From contig JALNZD010000016.1 of NCBI GenBank assembly GCA_023229505.1, forward strand, positions 1,604 to 65,603: a stretch of 64,000 bases of DNA. The letters are read 5' to 3'. The notes beneath the pieces were generated by a model, which did no database searches, was not told the DNA's origin, and saw nothing but the letters and a program-made list of their open reading frames with translations. This document shows, piece by piece, positions 9,114 through 51,540 of this stretch. Position 1 is the stretch's first letter, and every line of letters begins with the position of its first letter. The DNA is from Bacteroidales bacterium (GTDB taxonomy: Bacteria; Bacteroidota; Bacteroidia; Bacteroidales; JAGOPY01). Made by a program: the position numbers and the translations under genes.

Positions 9114-9177
9114 GAAGGTAGGAAATGGTACTCGAATATCACAAAGATATGACTTTTTCGAACAAAACTTGAAATTT

Positions 9178-9260
9178 GTAACGGTGAAACGGTGGAACAG
9201 TGAAACGGTGAAACGGTGGAATGGTGAAACCTTGAAACACGTAACACGTAACACGTAACA
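9178..9260. repeat. intergenic microsatellite block: (GGTGAAAC-like)x5 followed by (ACGTAAC)x3
   Basis: Direct reading: gtaacggtgaaacggtggaacagtgaaacggtgaaacggtggaatggtgaaaccttgaaacacgtaacacgtaacacgtaac. Confidence 0.9.
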
Positions 9261-9408
9261 TTGTATAGCCCCTCCCTTTCGGAGATACCTCATAAAGTCT
9301 TTATAACCGCAGAGACGCGGAGGCTCGGAGAATTAATTTTCCTCAATTAATTCAACAATCAAATTGAATTCATATTTTTGACAAGATAAAGGTTAAAAAT
9401 TCACCCTT

Positions 9409-26956: not shown

Positions 26957-27367
26957 TTAAGAATAACCATATTCCTCATAGAACTTCCGGATGACAGAAT
27001 CGAGGTCATCAAAAACCACATAATGATTTTTGCACCCGTTTCTTGAACAAACACTCACTCTTCCACCAACATCTGCATTAAAAGAAACCATAGGAGCATC
27101 GCAGATATCACAGGTAACATTTTTTCTCTTGAGATTCTCTTTGCAATGTGGGCAAGTTAATACAACTATTTCATTGTCAGGTATATGAAATTCTGAACTG
27201 TAATTATAATCTCCGTAAATCGAACTCAACCACATCGTTCCCTTTTGATTGTTGGAAGTTTCGATATGTAGTCTGATTCCTGGTTTATTATTGATGAGAT
27301 GATTCCCGTCCATTAGCGATTCATCGCAATGAGGGCACCTGACTGATAATGCAATTACCTTTGTCAT
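26957..27367 (-). CDS. four-CxxC zinc-ribbon protein, last gene of the hydrogenase operon
   Basis: CPHC...CPHC...CDIC...CSRNGC pattern. The gene lies 27 bp downstream of mvhA. It is a paralog of 37951-38433. Confidence 0.6.
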   Translation of the reverse strand: MTKVIALSVRCPHCDESLMDGNHLINNKPGIRLHIETSNNQKGTMWLSSIYGDYNYSSEFHIPDNEIVVLTCPHCKENLKRKNVTCDICDAPMVSFNADVGGRVSVCSRNGCKNHYVVFDDLDSVIRKFYEEYGYS

Positions 27368-27394: not shown

Positions 27395-28864
27395 TCATGA
27401 CCCTTTCCTAATGATTGTTTGAATTATTTTTCCATTTGCATCCCTGACCTTTACTTCCATTGGCATCTTTCCGGGCAAATGGTGAGTTGCGCAGGAAAAG
27501 CAAGGATCATATGCACGGAAAGCCATTTCGATTAAATTAAGTTTCCCTTCATCAACCTCTTCTCCAGGCCGGATCAGTTGCATTGCAGCCATTTTAATTG
27601 AAAGGCAGATTGCGCCGTTGTTGTTCGTGGTACCAACAATAAGATTAACCTTTTTAGTTATACCTTTTTCATCAGTAAAATAATGATGCGTGAGCGTACC
27701 TCGTTGCGCTTCCACTGTACCAACCCCTTCACCGACGATTTTCCCCAAAGGAGCTCTGAGGTCAGTGCCGGTAATATCCGGATCATGTGTAAGTTCCAGG
27801 CAGTGCTCGGCGGCATAGAGTAGCTCGATCAGCCTGGCCCAATGCATGGCCATAGTAAAATGGACAGGTTTGGTCCCGAAAGTATCAAACATTTTAGCAT
27901 ATTCCACGTTTGCGAGAGGTGTGGCCATACCATCAGCCACATTCAACCGCGATAAAGGTGTTGCCATGTATAGGCCTGATTGCTGACCTTCAATTAAACC
28001 TTTCCATCCGATTTGTTTCAAATACGGAAATTTTAAATAACTCCAGGATTCCACGTGCTCTTCGATGAAATCCAGGTAATCCTTCGGTTCATATTTGCAT
28101 ATTTCGTTTCCAACAGTATCAACTACTCTCACCTTGCCATCATAAAAATTAACATAATTATGCTCATCAACCAGGCCCATGGAATGCAATGTCAACCGGT
28201 AGGGGCCATTCGTAATAAGGTCAAGATAATCGGGATTGCCCAGCACAACATTCTCAAACAGTTGAAGACTAAATTTGGCAAAATCGACAAATCCTCTGGC
28301 TTTTTTCTCCACATCATCCCTCTCTTGTTCTGTTAATCCTTTTCTGACCCCACCCGGAATATTCATAACCACATGAGTCTGATGCCCTCCAAGTAAAGCC
28401 TGTATCTCCTGGGCAAATCTTCTTTGTTTGATCACCTCAGCCACGATTTCCTTTCCAACTTTTCCTATGACACCAAGAAGATTCCGCTCCATTGGAGGAG
28501 CCGTCGGGCCAACAATAAAATCAGGCGCAGCCAGAGCGTAAAAGTGAGCAATATGGCTGTGTACAAAGTGGGCCATATAAAATAACTCACGTAACTTTTT
28601 AGCCGTAGGTGGAGGAACCAGGCCGTATACAGCATCCAAGGCCTTTCCTGAGGCCATGTGATGGCAACCGGGACAAACGCCGCAGATTTTTGTAACAATT
28701 TGAGGCAATTCTTCAACTGGGCGTCCTTCACAGAACTTTTCAAATCCTCTCAATTCCGGCACCTGGAAAAAAGCGTTTTCGACATTACCATTATCATCCA
28801 GTAAAATTTCTATTTTACCGTGACCTTCCAATCGGGTGATCGGGTCAATTGTGATCTGTTTCAT
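27395..28864 (-). CDS. mvhA: [NiFe] hydrogenase large subunit, Mvh/group 3c-like
   Basis: N-terminal RLEGHG and KICGVCPGCH, and C-terminal DPCFSCATH followed by a 28-aa extension. Confidence 0.9.
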   Translation of the reverse strand: MKQITIDPITRLEGHGKIEILLDDNGNVENAFFQVPELRGFEKFCEGRPVEELPQIVTKICGVCPGCHHMASGKALDAVYGLVPPPTAKKLRELFYMAHFVHSHIAHFYALAAPDFIVGPTAPPMERNLLGVIGKVGKEIVAEVIKQRRFAQEIQALLGGHQTHVVMNIPGGVRKGLTEQERDDVEKKARGFVDFAKFSLQLFENVVLGNPDYLDLITNGPYRLTLHSMGLVDEHNYVNFYDGKVRVVDTVGNEICKYEPKDYLDFIEEHVESWSYLKFPYLKQIGWKGLIEGQQSGLYMATPLSRLNVADGMATPLANVEYAKMFDTFGTKPVHFTMAMHWARLIELLYAAEHCLELTHDPDITGTDLRAPLGKIVGEGVGTVEAQRGTLTHHYFTDEKGITKKVNLIVGTTNNNGAICLSIKMAAMQLIRPGEEVDEGKLNLIEMAFRAYDPCFSCATHHLPGKMPMEVKVRDANGKIIQTIIRKGS

Positions 28865-29847
28865 ATAACCTTCCTCCGTAATATTGACGCAGGTAATGAA
28901 AATCTGTAAAAAGTTCCGGCCGGATCAGGAAATCCTTGTATAATCCGGGCAATTTCATCCGGGTCATCCGAATCAATCATCGTGGCAATAGCTGACATCA
29001 TCTTCGCTCCCGGATCAATAACATCAGCCGGAGGCCCGTAACAGCCCCGGCAGGGTGCATTCCCTTTGATGCAACGCGTGCCACATCCGCTGCGGGTAGC
29101 TGGTCCCAGACAGATAACACCCTGTTCCAGGAAACAGGTTTCATGATCATCTTCAATTTCGTAACTCCTGAAAATCTGCCTGATCTTTTTATTATCGGAT
29201 TTTTTCCGTTCACATTCTTCACATTGTGATTTTTCATTTGCCCCGATTACACTGCCTATTGGCGGCAATTCCGCACCAGAAAAAACCGCTTCAAGTACCT
29301 CCACCAGACGTTCGCTTTGAGGCGGACACCCGGGCATGAAATAATCAACCGGAACAACATCATTTAGCGTGTAAACATCCTTATAGAACTCCGGAAGACG
29401 TAAATGCAAACCTGCAATGTGTTGCTCAGTCAAAGGTCTGACCTTGTCCGGATTTACCGTTGATTCACATTCATCATATAACCTTTCAAATATTAAATCC
29501 TTATTAAAGAAATTAGCCAGTCCCGGAATCCCGCCCAAATGGGCACAAGTTCCATAAGCGATTAAAATTTTCGATTTCTGGCGAAGTACTTTAGCAAGAT
29601 GTTCGTTCTCCGAATTCCTGATTGCTCCATTGAACAAAGTAATATCTATAAACTTATCCGGCATGGCTTCGACATCCTTGTATTTGACATCCAGGGCGAT
29701 AGGCCAGAAAACCAGGTCAGCAGCTTCAACTACAGCGAAGAGCTTTTCATGAATATCCAGCACTGACACGCAACATCCACCGCAAGCAGCTCCCCAGTAA
29801 ACAGCCAGCTTCAATTTGGCTTTTTCTTTTGAATCACTCATGTGCAA
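28861..29847 (-). CDS. mvhG: [NiFe] hydrogenase small subunit, MvhG-like
   Basis: [11 protein letters not shown] and the [10 protein letters not shown] proximal-cluster region, plus C-terminal Cys clusters. There is a 4-bp overlap with mvhA. Confidence 0.85.
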
Positions 29848-30268
29848 CTTTTATTTTAGCGTTTTCGCAAACTTTACTTGGACCCAACGCTCTGATGGAT
29901 TCCGTGTATTTATCCACAAGGGCGGCAAATTGTCTGCCTTCGCTGGCACTGATCCATTCCAGCGATAACCTTTCCTCCTCGATACCCATTTGGGTGATAT
30001 ATTTTTTAAGTAGATGATATCTTCTCAGGCACTTGTAATTACCTGACTGGTAATGGCAATCACCGGGATGACAGCCACAGATAAGAACCCCGTCGGCCCC
30101 TTCACGGAAAGCCTCCAGAACAAAGGTGGGTTCAATTCTCCCTGAACACATGACCCGGATGATCCGGACATTGGCTGCATATTTCATCCGGGATGTACCG
30201 GCAAGATCTGCACCTGTATAGGCACACCAATTACATAGAAATGCCAGAATGGTCGGTTGATAACTCAT
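29834..30268 (-). CDS. mvhD: MvhD-type hydrogenase iron-sulfur subunit
   Basis: FLCNWCAY...VMCSGR...[11 protein letters not shown] is the MvhD/FlpD signature. Confidence 0.9.
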
Positions 30269-30272
30269 AAAT

Positions 30273-32009
30273 TTATACCTCCATAAGTTCTTTTGATTTT
30301 ACAATCAGTTCCCTGATTTCCGAGAGTATCTGCTGATCGGTAAAGTGCCTGCTCCTTATCGCCCCTGTCGGACATGAGGAGCCACAGGTGCCGCAACCCT
30401 TGCAAAGGATTTCATTAACCCTTGAGACCTTTTTATCCATATCATAACTTATCGCAGTATAGGGACATAAGCTGATACAAGTCTGACATCCGCAACAAAT
30501 TTCTTCGTTAACTGATGCAGTTGTGACCTCGACATTCATCTTTCCAAGGCTGATGTTGGCAAGAATCCTGGCAGTGGCTGCTCTCGCCTGCGCTACTGTA
30601 TTTGGGATATCCTTCGGCGCCTGGCAGCTTCCCACAATGAATACACCATCTGTGGTTGTGGCTACCGGATCAAGTTTAGGGTGCTTTTCGATGTAAAATT
30701 CATTACTGCACATGGCTATTCCGGTCATGTGTGCAACGCTTTTCGCCGTATCATGAGCCTCCATAGCCACCATCAGGATGATCAAATCGGCCGGTACCAG
30801 GACCTGCTCGCCGGTTAATTTCTCGTCAACCTCAACAACAAGGTTGGGATATTCATTCCTGGCTCCTTTGCGGATCAAGGGAAGGCCATCATTTTGATTA
30901 AACATTAAAAAAAGCACGTTTTTTCTTGAAGTATCCCGGTATAATTCCTCGCAACCTTTGCCATATGACCTCATGTCAGCATATAGCTGGTAAATAGAAG
31001 CATGTGGCAAGGCTGATCTGATCTGGTTGGAGTATTTCAACGCCGTGGAGCAACAGGTTCTTGAACAGTATTCATGGTAATGCGAATTACGGCTTCCGAC
31101 ACAATGGATGATCACAACATTTTTCGGTTCATCTCCCCTGCTGGTGACAATCCTGCCTCTCTTGAGCATGTTTTCAAATTGAAAAGATGTAATGACATTG
31201 GGATACTTAGTATACCCATATTGGGGAATGATTGACGGATCAAATGGCTTTAACCCTGTTGCTATAACAATATGACCAAACTCCAGCTTAACTTCCTCCT
31301 CCTGATAATTAAAGCTGGTTTCAAAATTTCCGATATATCCGTAAACCTCTTCAAGATTGGTATTCAGAAATACCCGGATGTTAGGAAGGTTGAGTACCCT
31401 GTCGATGACCGAGCGAATGACCTGCTGGGTGCTGTCGAAATATGGAAACGTCAGGTCGACTTCTGCTACGATACCTCCAAGATGTTCTGACTTTTCGATT
31501 AGAAAAGCCTGCTTCCCCGCATCTGCGATTTCAAGAGCCGCGGTCATACCGGCAATTCCTCCGCCAACGATGAGGGTTGAAGGCTTAATATCAACCAATC
31601 GTTTGTCAAGCGCCTCATGCCACCTGACCCGGTGCACTGCCGCTGCTACAAGGGCTATGGCTTTCTGTGTCGCTTCACTTCTGTCATTATGAACCCATGA
31701 AACCTGTTCCCTTATATTGGCCATCTCCAATAAATAGGGATTCAAACCGGCATGTTCAAGGGCTTTTCGGAAAGTAAACTCATGGATGCGGGGCGAACAA
31801 GCAGCAACCACTATCCTATTCAGCTTGAACTCCTTGATATCATTGACTATCTGATCTTGTCCCGGGTCAGAACACATGTATTGATAATTACGCGCTACGG
31901 TGACATCTTGGATCTTAGAAATGTGAGATGACACCTCTTCAACATCAACCATCCTGGCGATGTTGGACCCGCACCAGCATACATACACCCCTATTCGCTT
32001 TTCAGCCAT
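30273..32009 (-). CDS. hdrA: HdrA-like flavoprotein, paralog 2 (N-terminal Cys domain + C-terminal 2x[4Fe-4S] ferredoxin domain, no inserted ferredoxin)
   Basis: [10 protein letters not shown]...YMCSDPG...AACSPR, GGGIAG, HCVGSR...YCSRTCC, and C-terminal [12 protein letters not shown] and [12 protein letters not shown]. Confidence 0.85.
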
Positions 32010-32020
32010 ATTGATTCAAT

Positions 32021-33211
32021 TTATACAGTTGCAAGTGAATTCTGAATAACCATTTCTGTCCTCGCTTTCTTTTTCAAACGATACAAATAAATAGCAAAAG
32101 GCCGGTAGGCAAGATGCGACCATTTCGAGAAAGGAACCTCGATTACGATCATGGGAACGAGAATCGCCATATGTATGACATAGGTAAAGTAAGTGGTCAC
32201 AGGTATCCCGCTTAGCCTGAAAAAATGAAGTACTATCCCTGAAATAGTAGTCAGGCCTAGCATGACAATGAATAACCAGTCAGAAGCATGAGAATATTTG
32301 AATTTATAGTCCTTTTTAATAATACGCTGGTAAGTGGCGATCCCCAGAAAGAAAAGAATTCCAAAAGTGGCATAATATCCGAGAAGGCGCTGCCAATGAT
32401 ACCATGCATAAACCTCTTCTGTCTGAAATCGTTTTAACATGGCTACAATAAAAATGAACATCATAGTATAACCGGACATAAGAAGGAAATGGCCAAACCA
32501 GTATTTCCGGCGATCGCAATGATAAAACTTGTTTTGTGTTACAAAATGGTAAATAAGTGACCAGGCTTCTGTAAAATAGGCATAAAATGGAACCTTGTAC
32601 TTTTTATCCCTGAGTATTGACAGGATAAACATCCTGATAATATTGGAAATCAGGATGCCTCCAATGATAATGGCCATGATCCAATCAGACCACTCAATGA
32701 TTTTAACAAATTGATCCGCGGATATGCCTGCTACCAGGCTATTGATCATTACACCGCCTTGTGAATTAATAAAATTCGCAGGATTTGAGAACATATCACG
32801 GTTAGGTGGCAGAAAAATGGCAAATGCCGCTAGAACCAGCATAAAAAAGGTTAATACCACACCAACTTCCCAGAACTTCGAGGTGTAAAATTTACGCGAC
32901 AATCCCGTCCAGTCATAAAGTGAAGTCAGGTAACGCCGCATTGACATCATGATCTCTGCCGGGTTGGCATCCCGCGGGCAGGATTCGGAACATTCCCCGC
33001 AATAATAGCACAGCCAGGGGTCAAGATTTGCCACCATACTGTCTTTTAACCCAAGTTGTGCCTGCTTGATGACCTTCCTTGGAAAAAGAAAGCCTTCTTC
33101 GGTCAGCTTGCAAATCGCACTGCAATTGCCACAGTTAAAGCAATCATTCCAATCTCTTACGCCAAACTTCAGCAGATCAAGCTTAACCTGGTCGTTAACT
33201 AATTGGCTCAT
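32021..33211 (-). CDS. QmoC-like protein: HdrC-like 2x[4Fe-4S] domain fused to a His-rich multi-TM (HdrE/NarI-like) domain
   Basis: CFNCGNCSAIC and CYYCGECSESCP lie at the N-terminus. Several hydrophobic segments follow, with His residues in or near them (YHFV, FGHFLL, WYHW, VLHFF, VIHMA, WSHLAY). Confidence 0.7.
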   Translation of the reverse strand: MSQLVNDQVKLDLLKFGVRDWNDCFNCGNCSAICKLTEEGFLFPRKVIKQAQLGLKDSMVANLDPWLCYYCGECSESCPRDANPAEIMMSMRRYLTSLYDWTGLSRKFYTSKFWEVGVVLTFFMLVLAAFAIFLPPNRDMFSNPANFINSQGGVMINSLVAGISADQFVKIIEWSDWIMAIIIGGILISNIIRMFILSILRDKKYKVPFYAYFTEAWSLIYHFVTQNKFYHCDRRKYWFGHFLLMSGYTMMFIFIVAMLKRFQTEEVYAWYHWQRLLGYYATFGILFFLGIATYQRIIKKDYKFKYSHASDWLFIVMLGLTTISGIVLHFFRLSGIPVTTYFTYVIHMAILVPMIVIEVPFSKWSHLAYRPFAIYLYRLKKKARTEMVIQNSLATV

Positions 33212-35025
33212 AATACTTCCTCCTTTTTTTCAATCATCCTTTTTAACCTGGGTATTATTTCTTCAGGATAAACATCCTTAATAGGTCTGTTGATCTTTCC
33301 TTTAATAATACTTTGAAGCACCCGTGAAGCTGCAGCGGAAGCCTGGGCGACGGTATCGGGAATATCTTTAGGCCCCTGGCAGGTTCCGGCGATATGAATA
33401 CCTGAAACATGGGTATCAACAGGATTATTCAAATAATTACTCTCCACATACCATCCGTATTCATCCACCGGAATACCCAGCATTTCACTCAACCATTCAT
33501 ATCCTTCACTCGGTTCCAGGCCAACTGAAAGGATAACCATGTCGACCTCCTGCCAGACAATCTTTTGACCTTCAATATCTTCTGTCCTGATGAACAGTTT
33601 GTCACCGGAAGGAAGAACCCTGGCAGCTTTTCCGCGTTGAATGTGGATGCCTTCCTTTTTCACCCGTTCGTAAAATTCTTCATACCCCTTCCCGTAAGCC
33701 CTCATATCAATGAAGTACTCATAAATAGAAGCTTCAGGTAATTTTTCCCTGGCAAGATGGGCCATTTTAAGTGAGTACATGCAACAAACCCTTGAGCAAT
33801 ATTTGTTATAATGCTCGTCACGGCTGCCAATACAATGTATAAAGGCAATGCTTTTTGGCTCTTCATTTTCCGGGGAAAACACCCAATTGCCTTTTTTATC
33901 TTTCGATCTGAATTTGATCATTCCACCAGTAGGGCCGGAAGCATTGAGTAATCGCTCAAACTCCAGAGATGTCAATACATTTGGAAATTTACCATAGCCA
34001 TAATTTTCAATTCTGCGTGCATCAAAAGTCTTGAATCCGGTTGCAATGATGATGTTTCCTACTGCAAATTCAACCTCATGATCTTCTTCATCAAGGTTGA
34101 TACAACCCGGAACTGGGCATACCTTGACACAAACACCACATTTACCGTTTTCAACATAAGTACAATGCTCCGGATCAATCAGGTATTTATTTGGAACTGC
34201 CTGAGGAAATGGTATATAAATGGCTTTCCTCAAAGTCGTTGCAGCATCAAACTCACTGGGAGCAGTTCTCGGACATTTTTCCGCGCAGGTGCCACATCCG
34301 ATGCAGGCCGACAGGCTAACACGCCGGGCTTTCTTTAAAACTCTTACAGTAAAATTCCCCGCTTTTCCACTGATAAAAGAAATCATTGAATTAGTAAGAA
34401 TCTCAATATTAGCATGTTGACCCACTTCAACCATCTTAGGAGTCAAAATGCAAGCGGCACAATCCAACGTTGGGAAGGTTTTGTCAAACATTGCCATATG
34501 TCCGCCGATGGTTCCCGATTTTTCGACAAGATAAACCTTGTTTTTACTATTCCCGATTTCCAGCGCAGCCTGGATACCGGCAATACCACCGCCAATCACT
34601 AGTGTAGCAGCATGGACCGGAGCTTCTTCAGGCGGATAAACCGATGATAAATCCACACCAAAAAGCCCGCATATTATGACTGAGGCTGCAAAAGGTGCGC
34701 TGCTTTTTTTGAATATGCCATATTCCCGGAAATTAAGCAGAACAACGTCCTGGATGTCAAGACCTGCCATCAACATAGATTTTGTAAGAAATGTTTTGTA
34801 AAAGCCGACATTGTGGCCCGCAACTAAAATCCGTTTCACCTGAAGATTTCTGATCTGTTTTGCCATCGCTGCAGGATCGTAGACAGGCACTGTTTTTTCG
34901 TTCCACACCGGTCCGGTTTCTATTACCTTATGAAGTTCCACAACAACATCTTCCTGTCTCAAGCTGTCAGCGCTTCCATTGAACATGCTTCCGAAAAATA
35001 TGGCTGATGACCTTGGATTTATCAT
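33208..35025 (-). CDS. hdrA: HdrA-like flavoprotein, paralog 1 (Cys-less N-terminal domain, inserted 2x[4Fe-4S] ferredoxin domain, no C-terminal ferredoxin)
   Basis: GGGIAG, TLDCAACILTPK, CIGCGTCAEKCP, CGVCVKVCP and HCIGSR...YCSRVCC. The N-terminal region aligns to paralog 2 but has AGHNVG where paralog 2 has AACSPR. Confidence 0.85.
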   Translation of the reverse strand: MINPRSSAIFFGSMFNGSADSLRQEDVVVELHKVIETGPVWNEKTVPVYDPAAMAKQIRNLQVKRILVAGHNVGFYKTFLTKSMLMAGLDIQDVVLLNFREYGIFKKSSAPFAASVIICGLFGVDLSSVYPPEEAPVHAATLVIGGGIAGIQAALEIGNSKNKVYLVEKSGTIGGHMAMFDKTFPTLDCAACILTPKMVEVGQHANIEILTNSMISFISGKAGNFTVRVLKKARRVSLSACIGCGTCAEKCPRTAPSEFDAATTLRKAIYIPFPQAVPNKYLIDPEHCTYVENGKCGVCVKVCPVPGCINLDEEDHEVEFAVGNIIIATGFKTFDARRIENYGYGKFPNVLTSLEFERLLNASGPTGGMIKFRSKDKKGNWVFSPENEEPKSIAFIHCIGSRDEHYNKYCSRVCCMYSLKMAHLAREKLPEASIYEYFIDMRAYGKGYEEFYERVKKEGIHIQRGKAARVLPSGDKLFIRTEDIEGQKIVWQEVDMVILSVGLEPSEGYEWLSEMLGIPVDEYGWYVESNYLNNPVDTHVSGIHIAGTCQGPKDIPDTVAQASAAASRVLQSIIKGKINRPIKDVYPEEIIPRLKRMIEKKEEVL

Positions 35026-35099: not shown

Positions 35100-35113
35100 A
35101 TGATAATAATCAT
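35100..35113. promoter_or_regulatory. FNR/CRP-type palindrome ATGAT-AATA-ATCAT
   Basis: A perfect 5+4+5 palindrome about 80 bp upstream of the hdrA-like-1 start. It matches the core of TTGAT-N4-ATCAA. Confidence 0.55.
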
Positions 35114-35121
35114 GTTGGAAT

Positions 35122-35135
35122 ATGATTTTTATCAT
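35122..35135. promoter_or_regulatory. second FNR/CRP-type palindrome ATGAT-TTTT-ATCAT
   Basis: The half-sites are the same as in the first box. The box centres are 22 bp apart. Confidence 0.55.
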
Positions 35136-35172: not shown

Positions 35173-35865
35173 TTAGTTAATTTTCCCTATCTTTTTCAGC
35201 TCTTCAAAATTCCGGATGGAAATTTTTCGCCCATTGATATCGATCAGATGTTCATCTTTGAATTCGGATAACAACCGGATTACGCATTCAGTAGCTGTTC
35301 CTATAATATTAGCCAGGTCTGTCCTGGATAAATTAATGTGGTTATTTCCTCCATTTTTATTAAAAACTTCATGCAGGGCCAGTAATGTCTCTGCAAGACG
35401 CTCCCTGACCGGCTTTTGTGCAAGGGATAATAGCTTGCTCTCGGCGTCTTCAAGCAGCGAACTAAGCGCCACCATCAGGCAATGAGAGACATCGGGATAT
35501 TTGAGCGTAACTTTAAGAAATGGCCTTTTAGGAATAAAACAAACTACAGAATCTTCAAGCGTGACAGCAGCTGTTGAATAATTCCAACCGCTAATCAGTG
35601 CCCGCAATCCGAAAAAGCTTGATGGGGTGACAATCCTCACAACCTGCTCTTTACCGTCACATCCAAGTCGATATATTTTAACCTTACCATCATTCAGGCA
35701 ATAAACACCTTGCGGGGTTCTTCCTTCATGAAAAATGATCTGTCCGCGTTTAATAATCGTGCTGCTTTTGAACGAACTGATAGATGCCTTATCCTCAGGA
35801 GGTAATTTTGCAAAACAATTGAGACTTTTTGCAAGACAAACTGAACAATCACGCTCAACATACAT
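35173..35865 (-). CDS. Crp/Fnr-family transcriptional regulator with N-terminal Cys triad
   Basis: cNMP-binding-like beta-roll and C-terminal HTH (LSRTDLANIIGTATECVIRLLSEF). A C-x2-C-x6-C motif occurs at residues 7-17 counted from MYVERD, with further Cys downstream. Confidence 0.8.
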   Translation of the reverse strand: MYVERDCSVCLAKSLNCFAKLPPEDKASISSFKSSTIIKRGQIIFHEGRTPQGVYCLNDGKVKIYRLGCDGKEQVVRIVTPSSFFGLRALISGWNYSTAAVTLEDSVVCFIPKRPFLKVTLKYPDVSHCLMVALSSLLEDAESKLLSLAQKPVRERLAETLLALHEVFNKNGGNNHINLSRTDLANIIGTATECVIRLLSEFKDEHLIDINGRKISIRNFEELKKIGKIN

Positions 35866-36018
35866 CTTAAATCCGGCTTTTATATTTAACAAATATATAT
35901 AATTATCATATAAAGTCAATTTCTTAACATTGGTCAAGGCAGATTTCCCGTTTATTTTAGGTCTTGCATGAAAAATTTGGGTTTACAGCAGAAAAAGTAT
36001 TTAATTTAGTGACAGAGT

Positions 36019-37950: not shown

Positions 37951-38433
37951 ATGCAAAGATTTGACCAGAATGGAATGATGATTTTCCCAAGTCCTGAAAG
38001 GATCAAAAAGGTTGGAAAACTCGAAGACCTCCTTGTCATAAGACAGTGTTATTGTCCGAACGGCCATAATCTCGTGAGTGACCAGGCTGTGTTCGATGGC
38101 TTTAACGGGATCGTTATGAAGGTAAGAAAAGCCGGCCAGGAGGGTCATGTTGCCCTGAATCCGGTTTACGGCCTGAAGCACCGTGTTTCGTTCAATATCA
38201 AGCTTGTCAAAGATGATTTGCTGGAAGTACTTTGTCCCCATTGCGGCGTTGCTTTACCTGTCTATACAGCTTGTTCGTGCGGTGGGGATCTCGTTACACT
38301 ATTCCTGGACGAAAAGCCTGATTTCACTAACAGCGTATTAATCTGCAACAGGGTTGACTGCCCTAATGCCAAGATCCGCCTTCATAATGAAATAGTTCAT
38401 TACGATGGTATGGGACATGTGATTTTCAAATAA
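37951..38433 (+). CDS. zinc-ribbon protein, paralog of the hydrogenase-operon 4xCxxC protein
   Basis: CYCPNGH...CPHC...CSC...CNRVDCPN, with the same spacing logic and shared blocks as 26957-27367. The start codon is uncertain. Confidence 0.55.
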   Translation: MQRFDQNGMMIFPSPERIKKVGKLEDLLVIRQCYCPNGHNLVSDQAVFDGFNGIVMKVRKAGQEGHVALNPVYGLKHRVSFNIKLVKDDLLEVLCPHCGVALPVYTACSCGGDLVTLFLDEKPDFTNSVLICNRVDCPNAKIRLHNEIVHYDGMGHVIFK

Positions 38434-41481: not shown

Positions 41482-42369
41482 ATGACGAAGGATCGGTTTC
41501 TTGACTATATAACTTACGAAAAGCGCTATTCTCAACACACTATTGTTGCTTACCAGACTGACCTGGAGCAGTTTTTCACTTTTCTGACCAACCAGTATAA
41601 TATTTCTGACATTAATAATGTAAACCACCAGATCATCCGGTCGTGGGTCGTCAGCCTGATGGAAAGTGGCAATACAGCCAGAACCGTCAACCGGAAAATA
41701 ACCACCTTAAAATCTTACTTCAAATTTCTTGTCAAAGAAGAATCAATACAGGAAAACCCCATGAACCGGGTGGTTGCTCCGAAGACTTCCCAAAGGCTGC
41801 CGGTTTTCGTGGAGCAGGAAAGCATGAACATACTTTTTGAAGAAGTTGATTTTGGCGAAGGTTACCCAGCCATCCGTGACCGGTTGATCATGGAACTGTT
41901 TTACGCAACCGGGATGCGGTTATCTGAACTGATCAACCTGAAAGATGCAGACATTGACCTGTATAAAAATGTACTTAAAGTTACGGGCAAGCGCAATAAA
42001 CAGCGGATAATCCCGTTCTCTGCTAATCTGGTCAATATGCTCCGTGAATACCTTGAAATGAAGAGAAAGACATTCCCGGTGAACGAGCAGGACACTCACC
42101 TTTTCCTGACAAATAAAGGTGAAAAGCTCTACCCCAAAATGGTTTATCGCATGGTGCACCATTACCTCAACCTGGTTACCACAATCAGCAAGCGCAGTCC
42201 GCATGTGATCCGTCATACTTTTGCCACGCACATGCTGAATAACGGTGCCGACCTCAATGCCATCAAAGAAATCCTGGGTCATGCCAACCTTGCGGCAACC
42301 CAGGTCTATACCCATAATACGATTGAAAAGCTTAAATCAATATATAAACAGGCCCATCCCAGGGCTTAA
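41482..42369 (+). CDS. xerC: tyrosine recombinase XerC/XerD-type
   Basis: N-terminal SAM-like domain, and catalytic RLSEL...HVIRHTFATH...LGHANLAATQVYTH. It lies in the conserved rpsU-xer-hpf context. Confidence 0.85.
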   Translation: MTKDRFLDYITYEKRYSQHTIVAYQTDLEQFFTFLTNQYNISDINNVNHQIIRSWVVSLMESGNTARTVNRKITTLKSYFKFLVKEESIQENPMNRVVAPKTSQRLPVFVEQESMNILFEEVDFGEGYPAIRDRLIMELFYATGMRLSELINLKDADIDLYKNVLKVTGKRNKQRIIPFSANLVNMLREYLEMKRKTFPVNEQDTHLFLTNKGEKLYPKMVYRMVHHYLNLVTTISKRSPHVIRHTFATHMLNNGADLNAIKEILGHANLAATQVYTHNTIEKLKSIYKQAHPRA

Positions 42370-42391
42370 CCTAAATATGGAGGATTTACTT

Positions 42392-42694
42392 ATGAGATTA
42401 AACATCAATGCTGTTCATTTCAAGGCTGACAAGAAACTTATCGCCTTTATCAAGGAGAAGATGGAAAAGATCACCCAGGTATTCGAAGGGGTAATCGACA
42501 CAGAGGTATCGCTTAAAGTCGAAAATTCGGATATGCGGGAGAATAAGATTACGGAGATCCTGGTAACTATACCAGGGAATAATTTCTATGTTAAAAAACA
42601 AAGTGCAACATTCGAAGAGTCTGCAGATGAAGCTGTTGAAGCGCTGAGACGGCAGTTAAAGAAATATAAGGAAAAGGTAAGGGGTAATCACTAA
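42392..42694 (+). CDS. hpf: ribosome hibernation factor HPF/RaiA (short form)
   Basis: MRLNINAVHFKADKKLIAFIKEKMEKI...EESADEAVEALRRQLKKYKEK. The start was set at the second ATG. Confidence 0.85.
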   Translation: MRLNINAVHFKADKKLIAFIKEKMEKITQVFEGVIDTEVSLKVENSDMRENKITEILVTIPGNNFYVKKQSATFEESADEAVEALRRQLKKYKEKVRGNH

Positions 42695-42753
42695 ATATAT
42701 TTATCATGATTTAGAAACTTTCTTTTGTTAATTCAACAATAATGTCTATTTTT

Positions 42754-42784
42754 GCAGACCTTTTTCGAAAGGTCTGCTTTTTTA
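42754..42784 (+). terminator. Rho-independent terminator after hpf
   Basis: GCAGACC-TTTTTCGAAA-GGTCTGC followed by TTTTTT. Confidence 0.8.
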
Positions 42785-42799
42785 TGTTCTTTGCATAAT

Positions 42800-42873
42800 G
42801 CCGATGTAGCTCAGCTGGCCAGAGCAGCTGATTTGTAATCAGCCGGTCGGCGGTTCGAATCCGTCCATCGGCT
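42800..42873 (+). tRNA. tRNA-Thr (TGT)
   Basis: Acceptor GCCGATG/CATCGGC and anticodon loop TTTGTAA. Confidence 0.9.
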
Positions 42874-42903
42874 CAAATTGAGAACAAATCAGAGCACTTT
42901 AAT

Positions 42904-42988
42904 GGGGAGATTCCAGAGCGGTCAAATGGGGCAGACTGTAAATCTGTTGGCTACGCCTTCGGAGGTTCGAATCCTCCTCTCCCCACCA
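42904..42988 (+). tRNA. tRNA-Tyr (GTA), long variable arm, CCA encoded
   Basis: Acceptor GGGGAGA/TCTCCCC and anticodon loop CTGTAAA. Confidence 0.9.
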
Positions 42989-42992
42989 CCTC

Positions 42993-43065
42993 GCGGAAGT
43001 AGCTCATTTGGTAGAGCGACAGCCTTCCAAGCTGTAGGTAGCGGGTTCGAGACCCGTCTTCCGCT
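42993..43065 (+). tRNA. tRNA-Gly (TCC)
   Basis: Acceptor GCGGAAG/CTTCCGC and anticodon loop CTTCCAA. Confidence 0.9.
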
Positions 43066-43070
43066 CCCAG

Positions 43071-43142
43071 GCCTTTGTAGCTCAGGGGTAGAGCACTTCC
43101 TTGGTAAGGAAGGGGTCATGAGTTCAATTCTCATCAAAGGCT
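43071..43142 (+). tRNA. tRNA-Thr (GGT)
   Basis: Acceptor GCCTTTG/CAAAGGC and anticodon loop TTGGTAA. Confidence 0.9.
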
Positions 43143-43196
43143 CTTAAATAATTTATAGTAAATAAATAACTTTTTAATTTTTAAATATTATTCGAT

Positions 43197-44384
43197 ATGG
43201 CTAAAGAAACCTTTCAACGTACTAAACCGCACGTGAATATCGGCACGATTGGTCACGTTGACCATGGAAAGACCACCCTTACTGCAGCCATCACCCTGAA
43301 CTTGCAGGATAAAGGTCTTGCCACTTTTAAATCGTTCGATGAAATTGATAATGCCCCTGAAGAAAAAGCCAGAGGTATAACGATCAACACGGCTCACATA
43401 GAATACGAAACTGTTAACCGTCATTACGCTCACGTTGACTGTCCGGGCCACGCCGACTATGTTAAGAACATGGTTACCGGTGCTGCCCAGATGGATGGCG
43501 CTATCCTTGTGGTGGCTGCTACTGATGGTCCAATGCCCCAGACGCGTGAGCATATTCTTCTCGCACGCCAGGTAGGTGTTCCCAAGATCGTTGTATTCAT
43601 GAGCAAGGTGGATATGGTTGATGACGAAGAACTTATCGACCTGGTAGATATGGAAATCCGTGAACTTCTCACCTTCTACGGGTTTGATGGCGATAATACG
43701 CCTGTGATCCGCGGATCAGCCCTGGGTGCTTTGAATAAAGAGCCTAAATGGATTGAAAAGATCTGGGAACTGATGGAAGCATGTGACACATGGATCCCGC
43801 TGCCAAAGCGTGATATTGACAAGCCTTTCCTGATGCCTGTTGAAGACGTGTTCTCCATCACGGGCCGCGGCACCGTCGCTACCGGAAGGATTGAACAAGG
43901 TGTTATTAAAGTCGGTGAAGCAGTAGAAATTATCGGTCTCGGCGCTGAAAAACTAAAATCAGTCGTTACCGGTGTCGAAATGTTCCGCAAAATCCTTGAC
44001 CGCGGTGAAGCCGGTGACAATGCCGGTCTGCTGCTCAGAGGTATTGACAAGGATTCAGTTCGTCGTGGCCAGGTTATTGCTGCCCCGGGTTCCATTACTC
44101 CTCATACCCACTTTAAAGCTCAGGTGTATATCCTGAAAAAAGAAGAAGGTGGACGTCATACGCCGTTCCACGATAAATATCGTCCTCAGTTCTACTTCAG
44201 GACTACAGACGTTACAGGTGAGATCCAACTGCCGGAGGGTGTTGAAATGATCATGCCAGGCGATAACCTTGCCATCACCGTGAAACTGATTCACGAAGTG
44301 GCTATGGATAAAGGTTTACGCTTTGCCATCCGTGAAGGTGGAAGGACAGTTGGCGCAGGACAGGTAATTGAAATAATTGCATAA
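43197..44384 (+). CDS. tuf: elongation factor Tu
   Basis: [15 protein letters not shown] and NKVD-equivalent (SKVD) motifs. The protein is 395 aa. Confidence 0.98.
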
Positions 44385-44445
44385 TTGGTAGGTTAATTTC
44401 CCGGCCATGCGAATATTTGACCGGGATCGAACCTGCTTTGAGCTT

Positions 44446-44518
44446 ACGGGTGTAGCTCAATTGGCAGAGTAGTGGTCTCCAAAACCATTGGTTGTAGGTT
44501 CGAGTCCTACCACCCGTG
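44446..44518 (+). tRNA. tRNA-Trp (CCA)
   Basis: Acceptor ACGGGTG/CACCCGT and anticodon loop CTCCAAA. Confidence 0.9.
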
Positions 44519-44535
44519 CAAAACGCATAAGTTAA

Positions 44536-44797: not shown

Positions 44798-45340
44798 ATG
44801 GGCGAACAGGTCAAAAAGTGGTATGTAGTACGGGCAGTAAGCGGTAAGGAAAAAAAGGTGAAAGAGTATATCGAGAGCGAGATCAACCGCCTTGGATTAC
44901 AGGATTTCCTTTCGCAGGTGCTCATCCCTACTGAAAAAGTTTACCAGGTAAGGAAAGGAAAGAAAATCAGCAAAGAAAGGAATTATTTTCCCGGATATGT
45001 GCTGATCGAAGCTGCCCTGGTGGGCGAATTAACGCACATCATCCGGAATATCCCTAATGTTCTGGGATTTCTGGGGACAGGCAATGAGCCGAGCCCAATG
45101 CGCGCCAGCGAAGTCAAACGTATCCTCGGAAAAGTGGATGAGTTGGCCGAGCAGAGCGAAGGCATCAATGTTCCTTTCATCGTGGGTGAAACCGTTAAGG
45201 TGGTCGATGGCCCTTTCAACAGTTTTTCCGGTGTGATCGAAGAGATCAACGAGGAAAAAAAGAAACTGAAGGTAATGGTCAAGATCTTCGGACGGAAAAC
45301 CCCGCTGGAACTGACTTTCATGCAGGTGGAAAAAGAATGA
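44798..45340 (+). CDS. nusG: transcription termination/antitermination factor NusG
   Basis: [18 protein letters not shown] domain and C-terminal KOW domain. Confidence 0.95.
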
Positions 45341-45385
45341 CACAGGTTATCCTTTAATTAATTAACATTTCAATCTTTTAATAGC

Positions 45386-45832
45386 ATGGCAAAAGAAGTT
45401 GCTGGAATGATCAAACTGCAAATCAAAGGGGCAGCTGCTAACCCTTCTCCCCCGGTTGGTCCTGCACTTGGTTCAAAAGGCGTGAACATCATGGAGTTTT
45501 GTAAACAGTTCAACGCCCGTACCCAGGATCAGCCCGGGAAATTACTCCCGGTGATTATCACGGTGTACAGGGATAAGAGCTTTGATTTCGTGATCAAACA
45601 CCCCCCTGTTGCAGTGCAGTTGATGGAAATGGCCAAAGTCACCAAAGGATCAGCCGAATCAAACCGCACAAAGATTGGATCGGTAACCTGGGACCAGGTC
45701 AAGATAATTGCCGAAGATAAAATGGTGGACTTGAATTGTTTTACGATCGAATCAGCTATGACGATGGTTGCTGGCACTGCCAGAAGCATGGGCCTCACCA
45801 TTAAAGGCGATTCACCGGTCTCTGAGCAATAA
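45386..45832 (+). CDS. rplK: 50S ribosomal protein L11
   Basis: [22 protein letters not shown]. Confidence 0.97.
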
Positions 45833-45878
45833 ACGGGTATATCATTATTCGTGAATTTAACATTAACGAAGTAAAACA

Positions 45879-46577
45879 ATGGCTAAACTAACCAAAAAAC
45901 AAAAGGAATCCCTGACGAAGTTTGATAAGGCGAAATCCTACGGGCTAAATGAAGCAGTAGAGGTTGTGAAAGGGATTACTTATACAAGCTTTGATGCTTC
46001 CGTTGACCTCGATGTCCGGTTGGGCGTTGATCCTCGAAAGGCTAACCAGATGGTTCGCGGTATCGTTACCCTGCCCCATGGCACCGGTAAAACGGTTCGC
46101 GTTCTGGCTCTCGTTACGCCCGACAAGGAAGAGGAAGCCATAGCAGCTGGTGCTGATTTTGTCGGACTTGAGGATTACATTGATAAAATCAAGCAAGGTT
46201 GGACCGACATTGATGTCGTGATAACAATGCCTCAGGTAATGCCTAAAATAGGCCCCCTTGGAAAGATCCTCGGCCCCCGCGGTCTCATGCCTAATCCTAA
46301 AACAGGTACGGTAACAATCGACGTGGCCAAGGCAATCAAGGAAGTGAAAGCAGGTAAAATCGACTTTAAAGTCGATAAATATGGCATCATCCATGCCTCT
46401 ATCGGAAAAGTGTCCTTCGAAAATGAACAACTCGTGGATAACGCGAGAGAATTACTGCAGACGATTCTTAAACTGAAACCGACTGCAGCCAAAGGAACCT
46501 ATATGAAGAGCGTGTATATGTCAAGTACGATGAGCCCGGGAATTCAAATCGAGCCCAAATCCTTAACAACAGTGTAA
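45879..46577 (+). CDS. rplA: 50S ribosomal protein L1
   Basis: [24 protein letters not shown]. Confidence 0.97.
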
Positions 46578-46603
46578 TAACCAAAATTAAGCAAGACAGA
46601 GTC

Positions 46604-47125
46604 ATGACAAGAGAAGAAAAAGATCAAATGATCGACTCATTGGCGGAAACACTGAAGAGTAGTAATACAGTCTATCTCACAGATATTTCAAAACTGAATT
46701 CAAGCAACTCCACCAGGTTGCGCTCGCTTTGCTTTAAAAGAAATGTGACGCTACAGGTGGTGAAGAATACTTTGCTTAAGAAAGCTATGGAAAAGTCTGA
46801 AAAAAACTTTGAAGGTCTTTTCGGAATTTTACATGGTCCTACATCCTTGATGATATCTGATTCGGGCAATGTCCCGGCAAAACTAATCAAAGAGTTCAGA
46901 AAGACCTCTGACAAACCCATTCTGAAAGGTGCTTATGTGCAAGAGATGGTGTTTGTTGGTGATGATCAGCTGGATTTATTGATGGCGCTCAAATCGAAAA
47001 ATGAACTGATCGCCGATGTCTTGGCATTACTTCAGTCACCCGTTAAAAATGTTATTTCCGGCCTGCAATCAGGCGGCCATAAGCTTTCAGGTATCCTGAA
47101 AACTTTATCGGAAAAGGAAGCATAA
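46604..47125 (+). CDS. rplJ: 50S ribosomal protein L10
   Basis: Supported by position and by sequence (LRSLCFKRNVTLQVVKNTL). Confidence 0.93.
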   Translation: MTREEKDQMIDSLAETLKSSNTVYLTDISKLNSSNSTRLRSLCFKRNVTLQVVKNTLLKKAMEKSEKNFEGLFGILHGPTSLMISDSGNVPAKLIKEFRKTSDKPILKGAYVQEMVFVGDDQLDLLMALKSKNELIADVLALLQSPVKNVISGLQSGGHKLSGILKTLSEKEA

Positions 47126-47178
47126 CAAAACAGAATTATTTAAAATTAAAATTGTAAACGTTTAAAAAATAATAAAAA

Positions 47179-47562
47179 ATGGCAGATTTAAAAGCTTTCG
47201 CAGAAAAGTTGGTAAACTTAACCGTAAAAGAAGTCAACGATTTAGCACAGATCCTCAAAGAAGAATATGGAATTGAACCGGCCGCAGCAGCCGCAGTGAT
47301 TGCAGCACCGGGAGCAGCAACGGGCGGCGAAGCCGTTGTCGCTGAAGAAAAGACCACCTTCGATGTGATCCTGAAACATGCAGGACAAGCCAAGCTTGGC
47401 GTTGTTAAACTCGTGAAGGAATTGACCAGCCTTGGTCTCAAGGAATCCAAAGAACTTGTTGATGCAGCTCCCAAGGCCATCAAAGAAGGAGTCTCCAGGG
47501 ATGAGGCTGAAGCACTGAAGAAACAGCTTGAAGAAGCTGGCGCAGAAGTTGAAGTTAAGTAG
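47179..47562 (+). CDS. rplL: 50S ribosomal protein L7/L12
   Basis: Ala-rich hinge, and [41 protein letters not shown]. Confidence 0.97.
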
Positions 47563-47605
47563 ATCTGATGAACAGGCTAAAAATATTTAGCCGTTCTATT
47601 ATCGG

Positions 47606-47633
47606 GCCTGGTTCCGCTTTTGGCGGATCAGGC
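47606..47633 (+). promoter_or_regulatory. rplL-rpoB intergenic hairpin (possible attenuator)
   Basis: GCCTGGTTCCGC-TTTTG-GCGGATCAGGC, with no clean T-tail. It sits at the position of the known partial terminator in other bacteria. Confidence 0.35.
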
Positions 47634-47705
47634 TCGTCCCCTTTAACATCATCTATCAATTCTTAATGTGCTAAACCGCCCCAACTGGGCATAAAACATA
47701 AAACC

Positions 47706-50700: not shown

Positions 50701-51512
50701 ACTACAATATTAAGCATAAAGAATTGCAAGGCAGGTTTAACAGGATGAAATTCCAGTCGACTGTCGGCGATGACCTTCCTAACGGGATTGTGCAAATGGC
50801 TAAAGTTTACGTTGCCCGCAAGCGGAAACTGCAGGTTGGCGACAAGATGTCGGGTCGGCACGGAAACAAGGGTATTGTAGCAAAGATTGTCCGGCAGGAA
50901 GACATGCCGTTCCTTGAAGATGGCACACCGGTCGATATCGTCCTTAACCCACTCGGTGTTCCCAGCCGTATGAACCTGGGACAAATCTATGAAACCGTTC
51001 TCGGCTGGGCCGGTCACAAGCTTGGTATGACCTATAGCACCCCGATTTTTGATGGTGCAAGCTATACGCAGATCAATGATTTGATGGAGAAAGCAGGTTT
51101 GCCTAAAGATGGAAAAGTATTTCTATATGACGGCGAAACAGGCGAAAGGTTCCATCAGCCAACTACTGTCGGGTTTATCTATATGCTGAAACTGCACCAC
51201 ATGGTGGAAGATAAAATCCACGCCCGTTCCATCGGACCTTACTCCCTGATTACGCAGCAACCGCTTGGTGGTAAAGCACAGTTTGGGGGACAGCGTTTCG
51301 GTGAAATGGAAGTCTGGGCACTTGAAGCATTTGGTGCTTCCAACATCCTTCAGGAAATACTTACCGTCAAATCGGACGATGTACAGGGAAGGGCAAAAGC
51401 TTATGAAACGATTGTTAAGGGCGAAAATATGCCTAAAGCGAGCATCCCTGAATCCTTCAACGTTTTGGTACACGAACTCAGAGGTCTTGGCCTCGAAGTG
51501 AGATTCGAATAA
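47706..51512 (+). CDS. rpoB: DNA-directed RNA polymerase subunit beta
   Basis: 1268 aa and conserved throughout. There is no in-frame ATG after the upstream stop at 47664, so a TTG start at 47706 is the best candidate. Confidence 0.98.
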
Positions 51513-51540
51513 TTTCAAGTAACAATTAAATCACTTATAC

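Follow-up and report, generated by a model that had tools for sequence, protein, structure and literature searches.

We analyzed a 64,000-nucleotide stretch of the genome of a Bacteroidales bacterium (GCA_023229505.1, contig JALNZD010000016.1, positions 1,604 to 65,603; referred to here as the window), in which two homologs of HdrA are encoded together with a [NiFe] hydrogenase. These are paralog 1 (A1; 33208..35025, minus strand; 605 amino acids [aa]), which we describe as a core-type unit, and paralog 2 (A2; 30273..32009, minus strand; 578 aa), an arm-type unit. We propose that A1 and A2 are the two halves of one asymmetric HdrA heterodimer within a six-subunit, membrane-anchored hydrogenase complex that would bifurcate electrons from H2 to quinone and ferredoxin, and we place the probability of this reading at roughly 60%. 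An initial annotation of the window had described both open reading frames (ORFs), which we confirmed at the given coordinates on the minus strand, and had suggested from their complementary losses of domains and cofactor ligands that the two paralogs form an obligate heterodimer with a single asymmetric electron path.

We aligned A1 and A2 with the HdrA of Methanothermococcus thermolithotrophicus (Mt; 5ODC_A; residues 1 to 647, rebuilt from the search alignments), which was the best PDB match of each paralog (E = 1.9e-129 for A1 and 1.5e-136 for A2). Both were approximately 41 to 42% identical to methanogen HdrA. Each chain retains a thioredoxin-reductase-like flavin adenine dinucleotide (FAD) domain with its GxGxxG motif (GGGIAG in A1, likewise retained in A2; Pfam Pyr_redox_2/FAD_oxidored), and the G/E/GG motifs were invariant in both families. 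Each chain also retains the core [4Fe-4S] site (A1, C398/410/414/415, HCIGSR...YCSRVCC; A2, C303/315/319/320), and the corresponding motif, CxGxRD...CSxxCC, was present in A1, A2, and all of their orthologs (71 and 62, respectively; see below). The other parts are divided between the two chains. A1 carries a CxxC pair (C189 and C192, equivalent to Mt C194 and C197) and an inserted 2x[4Fe-4S] ferredoxin domain with eight cysteines (C241/244/247/251 and C288/296/299/303); it has no cysteine at the positions of Mt C11, C13, C46, and C71 (AGHNVG stands where A2 has AACSPR), and it ends ahead of the position of the C-terminal ferredoxin domain. A2 has all four cysteines of the N-terminal cluster (C11, C13, C46, and C71) and a C-terminal 2x[4Fe-4S] ferredoxin domain with eight cysteines (C505/508/511/515 and C536/539/542/546); S/Q replaces the CxxC pair, and the inserted ferredoxin domain is cleanly deleted. 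The full cofactor set of HdrA is thus present in neither chain alone, with the N-terminal cluster, Cys194/197, and the inserted and C-terminal domains split one to one. The motifs and losses listed for A1 and A2 in the initial annotation, and the core cluster motif that it reported for both, were all borne out by the alignment, the last of these also by the orthologs. A shift of the cysteine ligands, as opposed to their loss, was rejected, given that no displaced ligand appeared in the three-way alignment or in an alignment of 136 sequences.

The sequence divergence of the paralogs follows the same division. The N-terminal domain of A2 is 56% identical to that of methanogen HdrA, whereas that of A1 is only 19% identical; the flavin core is 45 to 48% identical in A1 and 33 to 38% identical in A2. 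An AlphaFold2 (AF2) model of A1 superposed on the HdrA core (8rwn_A) with a template modeling (TM) score of 0.92. In this model, the Cys-less N-terminal domain of A1 (aa 1 to 130; 34636-35025) was folded (predicted local distance difference test [pLDDT], 81 to 95), which indicates that the domain is degenerate and not deleted. The cysteine at the position of Mt C11 was still present in 33 of the 71 A1 orthologs, and a BLAST search with the N-terminal 135 residues of A1 against a set of representative proteins matched only the query. A flavin-core loop, (A)SGPxxG (Mt 361 to 367), is missing from A2 (around aa 283 to 287; 0 of 11 sequences); it was found in canonical HdrA (8/8), A1 (9/9), and most core-type units of the fused proteins described below (80/105), in contrast to the arm-type units of these fusions (2/105). 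The loss of this loop is apparently a third loss that accompanied arm-type specialization, and a convergent one. The scores of the paralogs against the NCBIfam HdrA and HdrA2 profiles (366 to 565 bits) were well under the cut-offs (1,100 to 1,400 bits).

We next considered the best 80 loci, nearly all from metagenome-assembled genomes, of more than 500 relatives detected in a genome scan seeded with A1; the 71 A1 and 62 A2 orthologs were drawn from these 80 loci. The hosts included Bacteroidales, Prolixibacteraceae, Draconibacterium, Ignavibacteria, Calditrichia, Aminicenantes, Chlorobiota, Nitrospirales, and Acidobacteriota, and a second scan added bins labelled Fibrobacteraceae, Deltaproteobacteria, and Thermoleophilia. 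Caldithrix abyssi was not among the best 80 loci of a Calditrichia-seeded scan, and we do not claim the same architecture for the cluster reported in PMC5317091. All 71 A1 orthologs contained C194, C197 (Mt numbering), the eight cysteines of the inserted domain, and the four core cysteines, and none contained a C-terminal ferredoxin domain. All 62 A2 orthologs contained the four N-terminal, four core, and eight C-terminal cysteines, and C194, C197, and the inserted domain were found in none. Furthermore, the 20 residues around the CxxC pair of A1 (F180 to V199) were invariant in 80 family members, as were the Cys-bearing segments of the A2 N-terminal domain in the family alignment. The complementary pattern, whose recurrence in orthologous clusters had been put forward as a check on the heterodimer, held in every ortholog examined. 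This unvarying reciprocity rules out random loss in the orthologs, and the pattern is not a product of chance.

The division of parts matches a functional division known from solved Hdr complexes. Methanogen HdrA is a homodimer (PMC12350162), in which the arm of one HdrA acts in trans on the FAD', the core cluster HA4', and HA5' of the partner (PMC12350162). In cryo-EM work, the mobile arm comprises the N-terminal [4Fe-4S] domain, a ferredoxin domain at the C terminus, MvhD, and the enzyme that feeds in electrons; the high-potential electron leaves via the core cluster of the partner to HdrC, and the low-potential electron is picked up by the shuttle cluster of the arm and passed to the partner's inserted ferredoxin domain (PMC12350162, PMC13518236). 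The N-terminal A3 cluster and residue 197 are located between the arm and the FAD (PMC13518236). Residue 197 is a selenosulfide-forming selenocysteine (U197) in M. maripaludis (PMC13518236), and the part of PMC9012536 that summarizes the crystal structure of Wagner 2017 gives Cys197 of the partner as a ligand of the N-terminal cluster. Judged by the alignment, the parts retained by A2 are exactly those of the arm, and the parts retained by A1 are exactly those of the core. A heterodimer would therefore hold exactly one complete bifurcation unit, and the symmetry-related unit (i.e., an A1 arm acting on an A2 core) has been stripped of every specific part.

Modeling was consistent with this arrangement. 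An AF2 model of A1 joined directly to A2, which mimics the natural fusions and for which the alignment held tandem proteins and both families, was compact and of high confidence (mean pLDDT, 91.8; predicted TM score, 0.90). The CxxC loop (residues 171 to 190), the sole disordered part of the A1-only model (pLDDT, 54/39), was predicted with confidence in the joined model (pLDDT, 94/90).

We then searched A2, without a profile, against 1.84 billion representative proteins (50% identity), among which all A2 orthologs constituted one cluster, and classified the other 149 best representatives by BLAST with the five domains of methanogen HdrA. At least 78 of these 149 were single chains of approximately 950 to 1,500 aa in which a core-type unit is followed by an arm-type unit. 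[quoted passage not shown] An additional 22 representatives were similar, with an N-terminal truncation or an interruption, and six fusions ran on into MvhD (e.g., P0256, composed of core-type unit, arm-type unit, and MvhD). With respect to the tandem unit best aligned to each paralog, A1 aligned to the first in 94 of 118 cases and A2 to the second in 118 of 118. The tandem fusions delete the N-terminal domain that A1 retains in a Cys-less form. Many of them (P0257, P0262, P0265, and others; 1,300 to 1,530 aa) contain an insertion of approximately 450 aa in the first unit, which by its sequence resembles NfnB/GltD-type flavoprotein modules that bind NAD(P)H; the insertion has a counterpart in the HdrA-NfnB fusions noted for the anaerobic methanotrophic archaea (ANME) of the ANME-1 group (PMC9012536).

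A neighbor-joining tree of the flavin core (216 columns; 100 bootstraps), a simple method applied to saturated distances, placed A1 and A2 with a few canonical HdrAs. In none of the 100 bootstraps did A2 group with the arm-type fusion units, and the common clade of A1 and A2 excluded the second fusion unit in 98 of 100 and both fusion units in 65 of 100. Orthology of the fused tandems with the A1/A2 pair thus found no support in the core-domain tree, and the fusions therefore count as evidence by analogy only: core-type and arm-type units appear to have been joined repeatedly in one molecule in nature. As a lead, the tree suggests that the split pair goes back to a duplication of its own, after which the copies degenerated in the same complementary manner (i.e., convergence).

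Taken with the conservation and the trans architecture, the fusions and the joined AF2 model support the A1:A2 heterodimer with a single asymmetric path that the initial annotation had suggested. At the level of sequence and model, this part of the annotation stands; the idea itself is not new and was published by Chadwick et al. (2022).

The two hdrA genes lie in a tight operon of six minus-strand genes (hdrA1-qmoC-hdrA2-mvhD-mvhG-mvhA) in which neighbors overlap or are 4 to 11 bp apart, and this gene order was identical in essentially every sufficiently long locus (80 loci, at least six phyla). Between the hdrA genes is the gene for a QmoC-like membrane subunit (32021..33211; 396 aa), whose start overlaps the hdrA1 stop by 4 bp. 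Downstream of hdrA2, with its start 4 bp past that gene, is mvhD (29834..30268; 144 aa; Pfam FlpD, E = 2.8e-55), which encodes the [2Fe-2S] adaptor between hydrogenase and HdrA. MvhD corresponds to positions 647 to 774 of the NCBIfam HdrA2 profile, so that A2 and MvhD are colinear with that fused profile, and its cysteines were unchanged in 59 orthologs. The operon ends with mvhG (28861..29847; NCBIfam VhuG, E = 8.5e-65; Pfam Oxidored_q6), for the small subunit of a group 3c-type [NiFe] hydrogenase, and mvhA (27395..28864; 5ODC_F MvhA, E = 1e-116; NCBIfam VhuA, E = 1.1e-115), for the large subunit, which has both nickel-binding motifs (CGVCPGCH, N-terminal; DPCFSCATH, C-terminal). The assignment to group 3c follows from an MvhA with both CxxC motifs and from MvhG and MvhD being encoded together with it beside hdrA; the matches to the VhuA, VhuG, and VhuD profiles (E = 1e-115, 8.5e-65, and 7e-39, respectively) were all under the equivalog cut-offs.

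The QmoC-like protein consists of an HdrC-like 2x[4Fe-4S] domain (C24/27/30/34 and C68/71/74/78) and, C-terminal to it, six transmembrane helices predicted from hydropathy. Across 72 orthologs, the eight cysteines, H241, H347, H366, M194, and C232 were invariant. The protein aligned with the NCBIfam qmoC model (NF038018) over its full length (E = 1.6e-49), and residues 12 to 93 matched HdrC (7BKB_C; E = 2.2e-11). HdrC-like sequence was present in the operon only as this N terminus; neither hdrB nor a separate hdrC was found in the operon or among the conserved flank genes of the 80 loci, and apr and sat were absent from the window and not conserved in the flanks of these loci. Given that the Fe-S domain is homologous to HdrC and that hdrB, hdrC, and apr are not conserved in the flanks, the simplest reading is that the QmoC-like subunit replaces HdrBC, occupying the position of HdrC, and that menaquinone replaces the heterodisulfide as the high-potential acceptor.

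In the scheme that we propose, A2 would carry the arm and dock MvhD and the [NiFe] hydrogenase through the ferredoxin domain at its C terminus and the [4Fe-4S] shuttle cluster of its N-terminal domain. A1 would provide the core, i.e., the bifurcating FAD, the core [4Fe-4S] cluster, and the inserted 2x[4Fe-4S] domain, and its CxxC pair would face or complete the N-terminal cluster of A2. Electrons from H2 would pass via MvhA/G and MvhD to the FAD of A1. [quoted passage not shown] The second, symmetric path of the methanogen homodimer would be dismantled, so that each heterodimer retains a single path. The proposed net reaction is 2 H2 + MK + 2 Fd(ox) -> MKH2 + 2 Fd(red) + 2 H+ (MK, menaquinone; Fd, ferredoxin); in the direction of H2 uptake, which we presume here, it is strongly favorable as estimated from standard potentials.

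Several observations weigh against this proposal. The score of the QmoC-like protein is below the curated threshold of its family (169 versus 300 bits), and its binding of quinone and heme is predicted. The joined AF2 model is covalent and was built from a deeper alignment than the A1-only model, so that the gain in confidence at the CxxC loop could stem from the alignment and not from the partner. The FAD site and core cluster of A2 are apparently intact and strongly conserved, which a one-path model leaves unexplained. The role of Cys197 differs between structural reports, i.e., a cluster ligand (PMC9012536) or a selenosulfide-forming U197 (PMC13518236). The complex, its stoichiometry, and its activity are predicted from genes and a model. 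Finally, a Rex-like regulator encoded downstream of the operon in 25 of the 80 loci fits a redox-balancing, H2-evolving role equally well.

This last point leads to the strongest of the alternatives, which we nonetheless regard as unlikely: the same A1:A2 heterodimer could run in reverse as a confurcating enzyme that evolves H2 from reduced ferredoxin and menaquinol during fermentation. Bifurcation at a flavin can in principle run in either direction, and Qmo has been suggested to confurcate. Most of the hosts belong to fermentative Bacteroidota and Ignavibacteria, and the Rex-like (NADH/NAD-sensing; 25 loci) and Crp/Fnr (approximately 30 loci) regulators found downstream and upstream of the operon are typical of fermentative redox-balancing hydrogenases, as discussed for C. 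abyssi. The energetics argue against such a direction, given that the mean of the ferredoxin (approximately -450 to -500 mV) and menaquinone (approximately -74 mV) potentials, estimated from standard potentials, is approximately -270 mV, which reaches the H+/H2 couple only near 1 Pa H2. The reverse reaction must also oppose the proton-motive force if menaquinol is oxidized at the outer membrane side.

It is also unlikely that the heterodimer does not bifurcate and operates as an H2:menaquinone oxidoreductase (or a ferredoxin:menaquinone oxidoreductase with hydrogenase input), with HdrA as a wire or scaffold and the inserted ferredoxin domain as an extra entry or exit. Electron transfer from H2 to menaquinone alone is strongly exergonic, a ferredoxin gene is absent from the operon and its conserved flanks, and the FAD site and core cluster of A2 have no obvious role in a single path. 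Such an enzyme would, however, be a costly apparatus for a reaction performed by simple cytochrome-b-linked hydrogenases, and the entire low-potential branch (i.e., the shuttle cluster, the CxxC pair, and the eight cysteines of the inserted domain) was invariant in all orthologs.

An arrangement in which A1 and A2 do not pair at all is improbable. Here, A1 homodimers would work with QmoC and A2 homodimers with MvhADG, co-transcribed and linked by a soluble carrier, as might be read from the position of qmoC between the hdrA genes, that of mvhD after hdrA2, and the homodimeric state of methanogen HdrA. An A2 homodimer, however, would have no electron exit without the CxxC pair, the inserted domain, and an HdrC-like partner, and an A1 homodimer without an arm would have no entry from MvhD. 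The losses are moreover exactly reciprocal and invariant, at least 78 representative families fuse both unit types, and the joined AF2 model is confidently compact. Least probable is an ordinary QmoABC serving adenosine 5'-phosphosulfate (APS) reductase (QmoA = A1; QmoB = A2 + MvhD): two HdrA-like flavoproteins, a QmoC-like protein, and an MvhD-like module do reproduce the described Qmo composition, and the qmoC profile aligned over its full length, but its 169 bits fall far short of the required 300, apr and sat were found neither in the window nor in the conserved flanks of the 80 loci, the operon includes a complete MvhDGA hydrogenase, both paralogs are approximately 41 to 42% identical to methanogen HdrA, and a QmoA-like or QmoB-like architecture occurred in 0 of the 150 best representatives. 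The qmoC model was the only Qmo model obtained from NCBIfam.

The conserved flank genes of the 80 loci were restricted to those for a maturation protease, hypABDEF, Rex-like and Crp/Fnr-like regulators, and small zinc-ribbon proteins. The protease gene followed mvhA in 46 of the 80 loci, hypF, hypB, hypA, hypE, and hypD were nearby in 17 to 27 loci, and a Crp/Fnr homolog was located upstream of A1 in approximately 30. In the window itself, the maturation protease, hyp genes, and Rex-like regulator are not beside the operon. We detected no hdrB, hdrC, apr, hydrogenase maturation protease, or hypA in the 64 kb, including by tblastn for the last two; because tblastn found none there, the maturation protease and hypA genes must be located elsewhere in this genome.

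Directly upstream of the operon is a gene for a Crp/Fnr-family regulator (35173..35937, minus strand; Pfam cNMP_binding, E = 1.4e-21; HTH_Crp_2, E = 4.2e-16). The 147-bp region between this gene and hdrA1 contains two TGAT-N4-ATCA palindromes (35101-35112 and 35123-35134) spaced 22 bp apart, out of seven matches in the window (2.2 expected). At least one exact box was present in 14 of 75 orthologous hdrA1 upstream regions (0.013 expected per region). These boxes are likely candidates for Crp/Fnr-type operators of the adjoining regulator, as judged from their sequence and position. A third box (35235-35246) lies within the 3' end of the regulator gene. A scan for sigma-70 promoters returned 20 sites (21.3 expected), with a consensus from which Bacteroidota promoters differ.

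Directly downstream of mvhA, a Cys-rich zinc-ribbon protein (26957..27367, minus strand; 136 aa) is encoded, which had weak Pfam Zn_ribbon matches only and no NCBIfam match; its homologs were near the operon in several loci of the scan (e.g., L032, L001, and L008). A distant paralog (24% identity; E = 2e-5) is encoded on the other side of the operon region (37951-38433, plus strand). The latter protein is 47% identical to one encoded downstream of mvhA in locus L058, and its family occurred in 19 loci. Neither zinc-ribbon protein has a meaningful Pfam or NCBIfam family, and homologs of both recur beside the same operon in other genomes. Both may be accessory or assembly factors, the membership of 26957-27367 in the system being uncertain.

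The flanks of the window encode a transketolase, a PdxB-like dehydrogenase, a ZIP transporter, and DPP-IV, and an 881-aa protein with AMP-binding, PP-binding, and acyltransferase domains is encoded at 6648-9293. A cluster of tRNA genes (Thr, Tyr, Gly, and Thr) comes after a XerC/D-type tyrosine recombinase gene (41482-42369). The regions 41482-44519 and 44798-55848 represent ordinary chromosomal context, with an ORF of 395 aa where tuf would be expected, tRNA-Trp, a number of small ORFs, and a pair of very large ones (1,268 and 1,435 aa) arranged as in a typical rplKAJL-rpoBC cluster; the tuf and rpoBC identities are candidates based on size and order.

The closest precedent for the paired HdrA units is from archaea and Moorella. 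Chadwick et al. (2022) proposed symmetry-breaking HdrA heterodimers for the tandem HdrAs of ANME and for a fused Moorella HdrA (PMC9012536). [quoted passage not shown] The system described here differs in that the two units are encoded by separate genes with a qmoC-like gene between them, that the core-type unit has not lost its N-terminal domain but retains it in a folded, Cys-less form, that the partners are QmoC and MvhDGA instead of HdrBC, MetFV, or Fdh-type modules, and that the hosts are Bacteroidota, Ignavibacteria, and Calditrichia (the Fibrobacterota-Chlorobiota-Bacteroidota [FCB] group).

Compared with methanogen MvhAGD-HdrABC (5ODC) and the related Elp-Hdr, Fdh-Hdr-Fmd, and Hdr-Vhu-Fwd complexes, HdrA, MvhD, MvhG, and MvhA are homologous and share the same cofactor motifs. 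The methanogen complex is a symmetric homodimer with two paths, whereas we propose one path over two paralogs; HdrB is absent here, a membrane protein of six helices supplies an Fe-S domain in place of HdrC, and the high-potential acceptor is presumably a quinone instead of CoM-S-S-CoB. The QmoABC membrane complexes of sulfate reducers and sulfur oxidizers likewise contain two HdrA-like flavoproteins that differ from each other, together with an MvhD-like module and QmoC, itself an HdrC-like Fe-S domain fused to a cytochrome-b-like membrane domain, and bifurcation or confurcation has been proposed for them. In contrast to QmoABC, the operon described here has a dedicated [NiFe] hydrogenase, a separate mvhD, no linkage to apr or sat, and a QmoC-like protein under the family threshold. 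Its flavoproteins are also close to true HdrA, a comparison in which QmoA and QmoB enter by their described architecture and not by sequence.

We found no description of an hdrA-qmoC-hdrA-mvhDGA cluster in full-text searches; an earlier mention in a review is possible. Papers that encountered such clusters labelled them "MvhADG/HdrABC" or called their function unknown. The heterodimer concept has already been published, and the bacterial version with a QmoC-like module in place of HdrBC looks undescribed. More doubtful, and in our view somewhat less than an even bet, is the broader claim that these loci represent an unrecognized enzyme class, i.e., a membrane-bound, quinone-dependent, bifurcating [NiFe] hydrogenase widespread in Bacteroidota, Ignavibacteria, Calditrichia, and neighboring phyla, whose one-path asymmetry evolved independently of the Firmicutes and archaeal fusions.

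Group 3c hydrogenase/HdrA clusters of nonmethanogenic bacteria are routinely annotated as MvhADG/HdrABC that is heterodisulfide reducing, or are left without a function; HdrB is absent from the clusters of these organisms. Our analysis offers a testable wiring for them, with one bifurcation path over two paralogs and an exit to the quinone pool via the QmoC-like subunit. We consider the predicted quinone-linked bifurcating hydrogenase, its wide spread in uncultured FCB-group bacteria, and the possible convergent asymmetry to be the most interesting aspects. The pair would constitute a natural "half-of-sites" HdrA with the arm and the core on separate, independently mutable polypeptides, which would ease work on the mechanism of bifurcation. 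The apparent independent origin of the pair suggests that Hdr can do without the two-fold symmetry seen in methanogens and has repeatedly lost it; if so, HdrA has been convergently and repeatedly pared down from a homodimer with two paths to a pseudo-dimer with one. If the proposed reaction is correct, H2 metabolism would be tied directly to both the membrane quinone pool and that of ferredoxin in Bacteroidota-type bacteria, which are abundant anaerobes in sediments, digesters, and groundwater.

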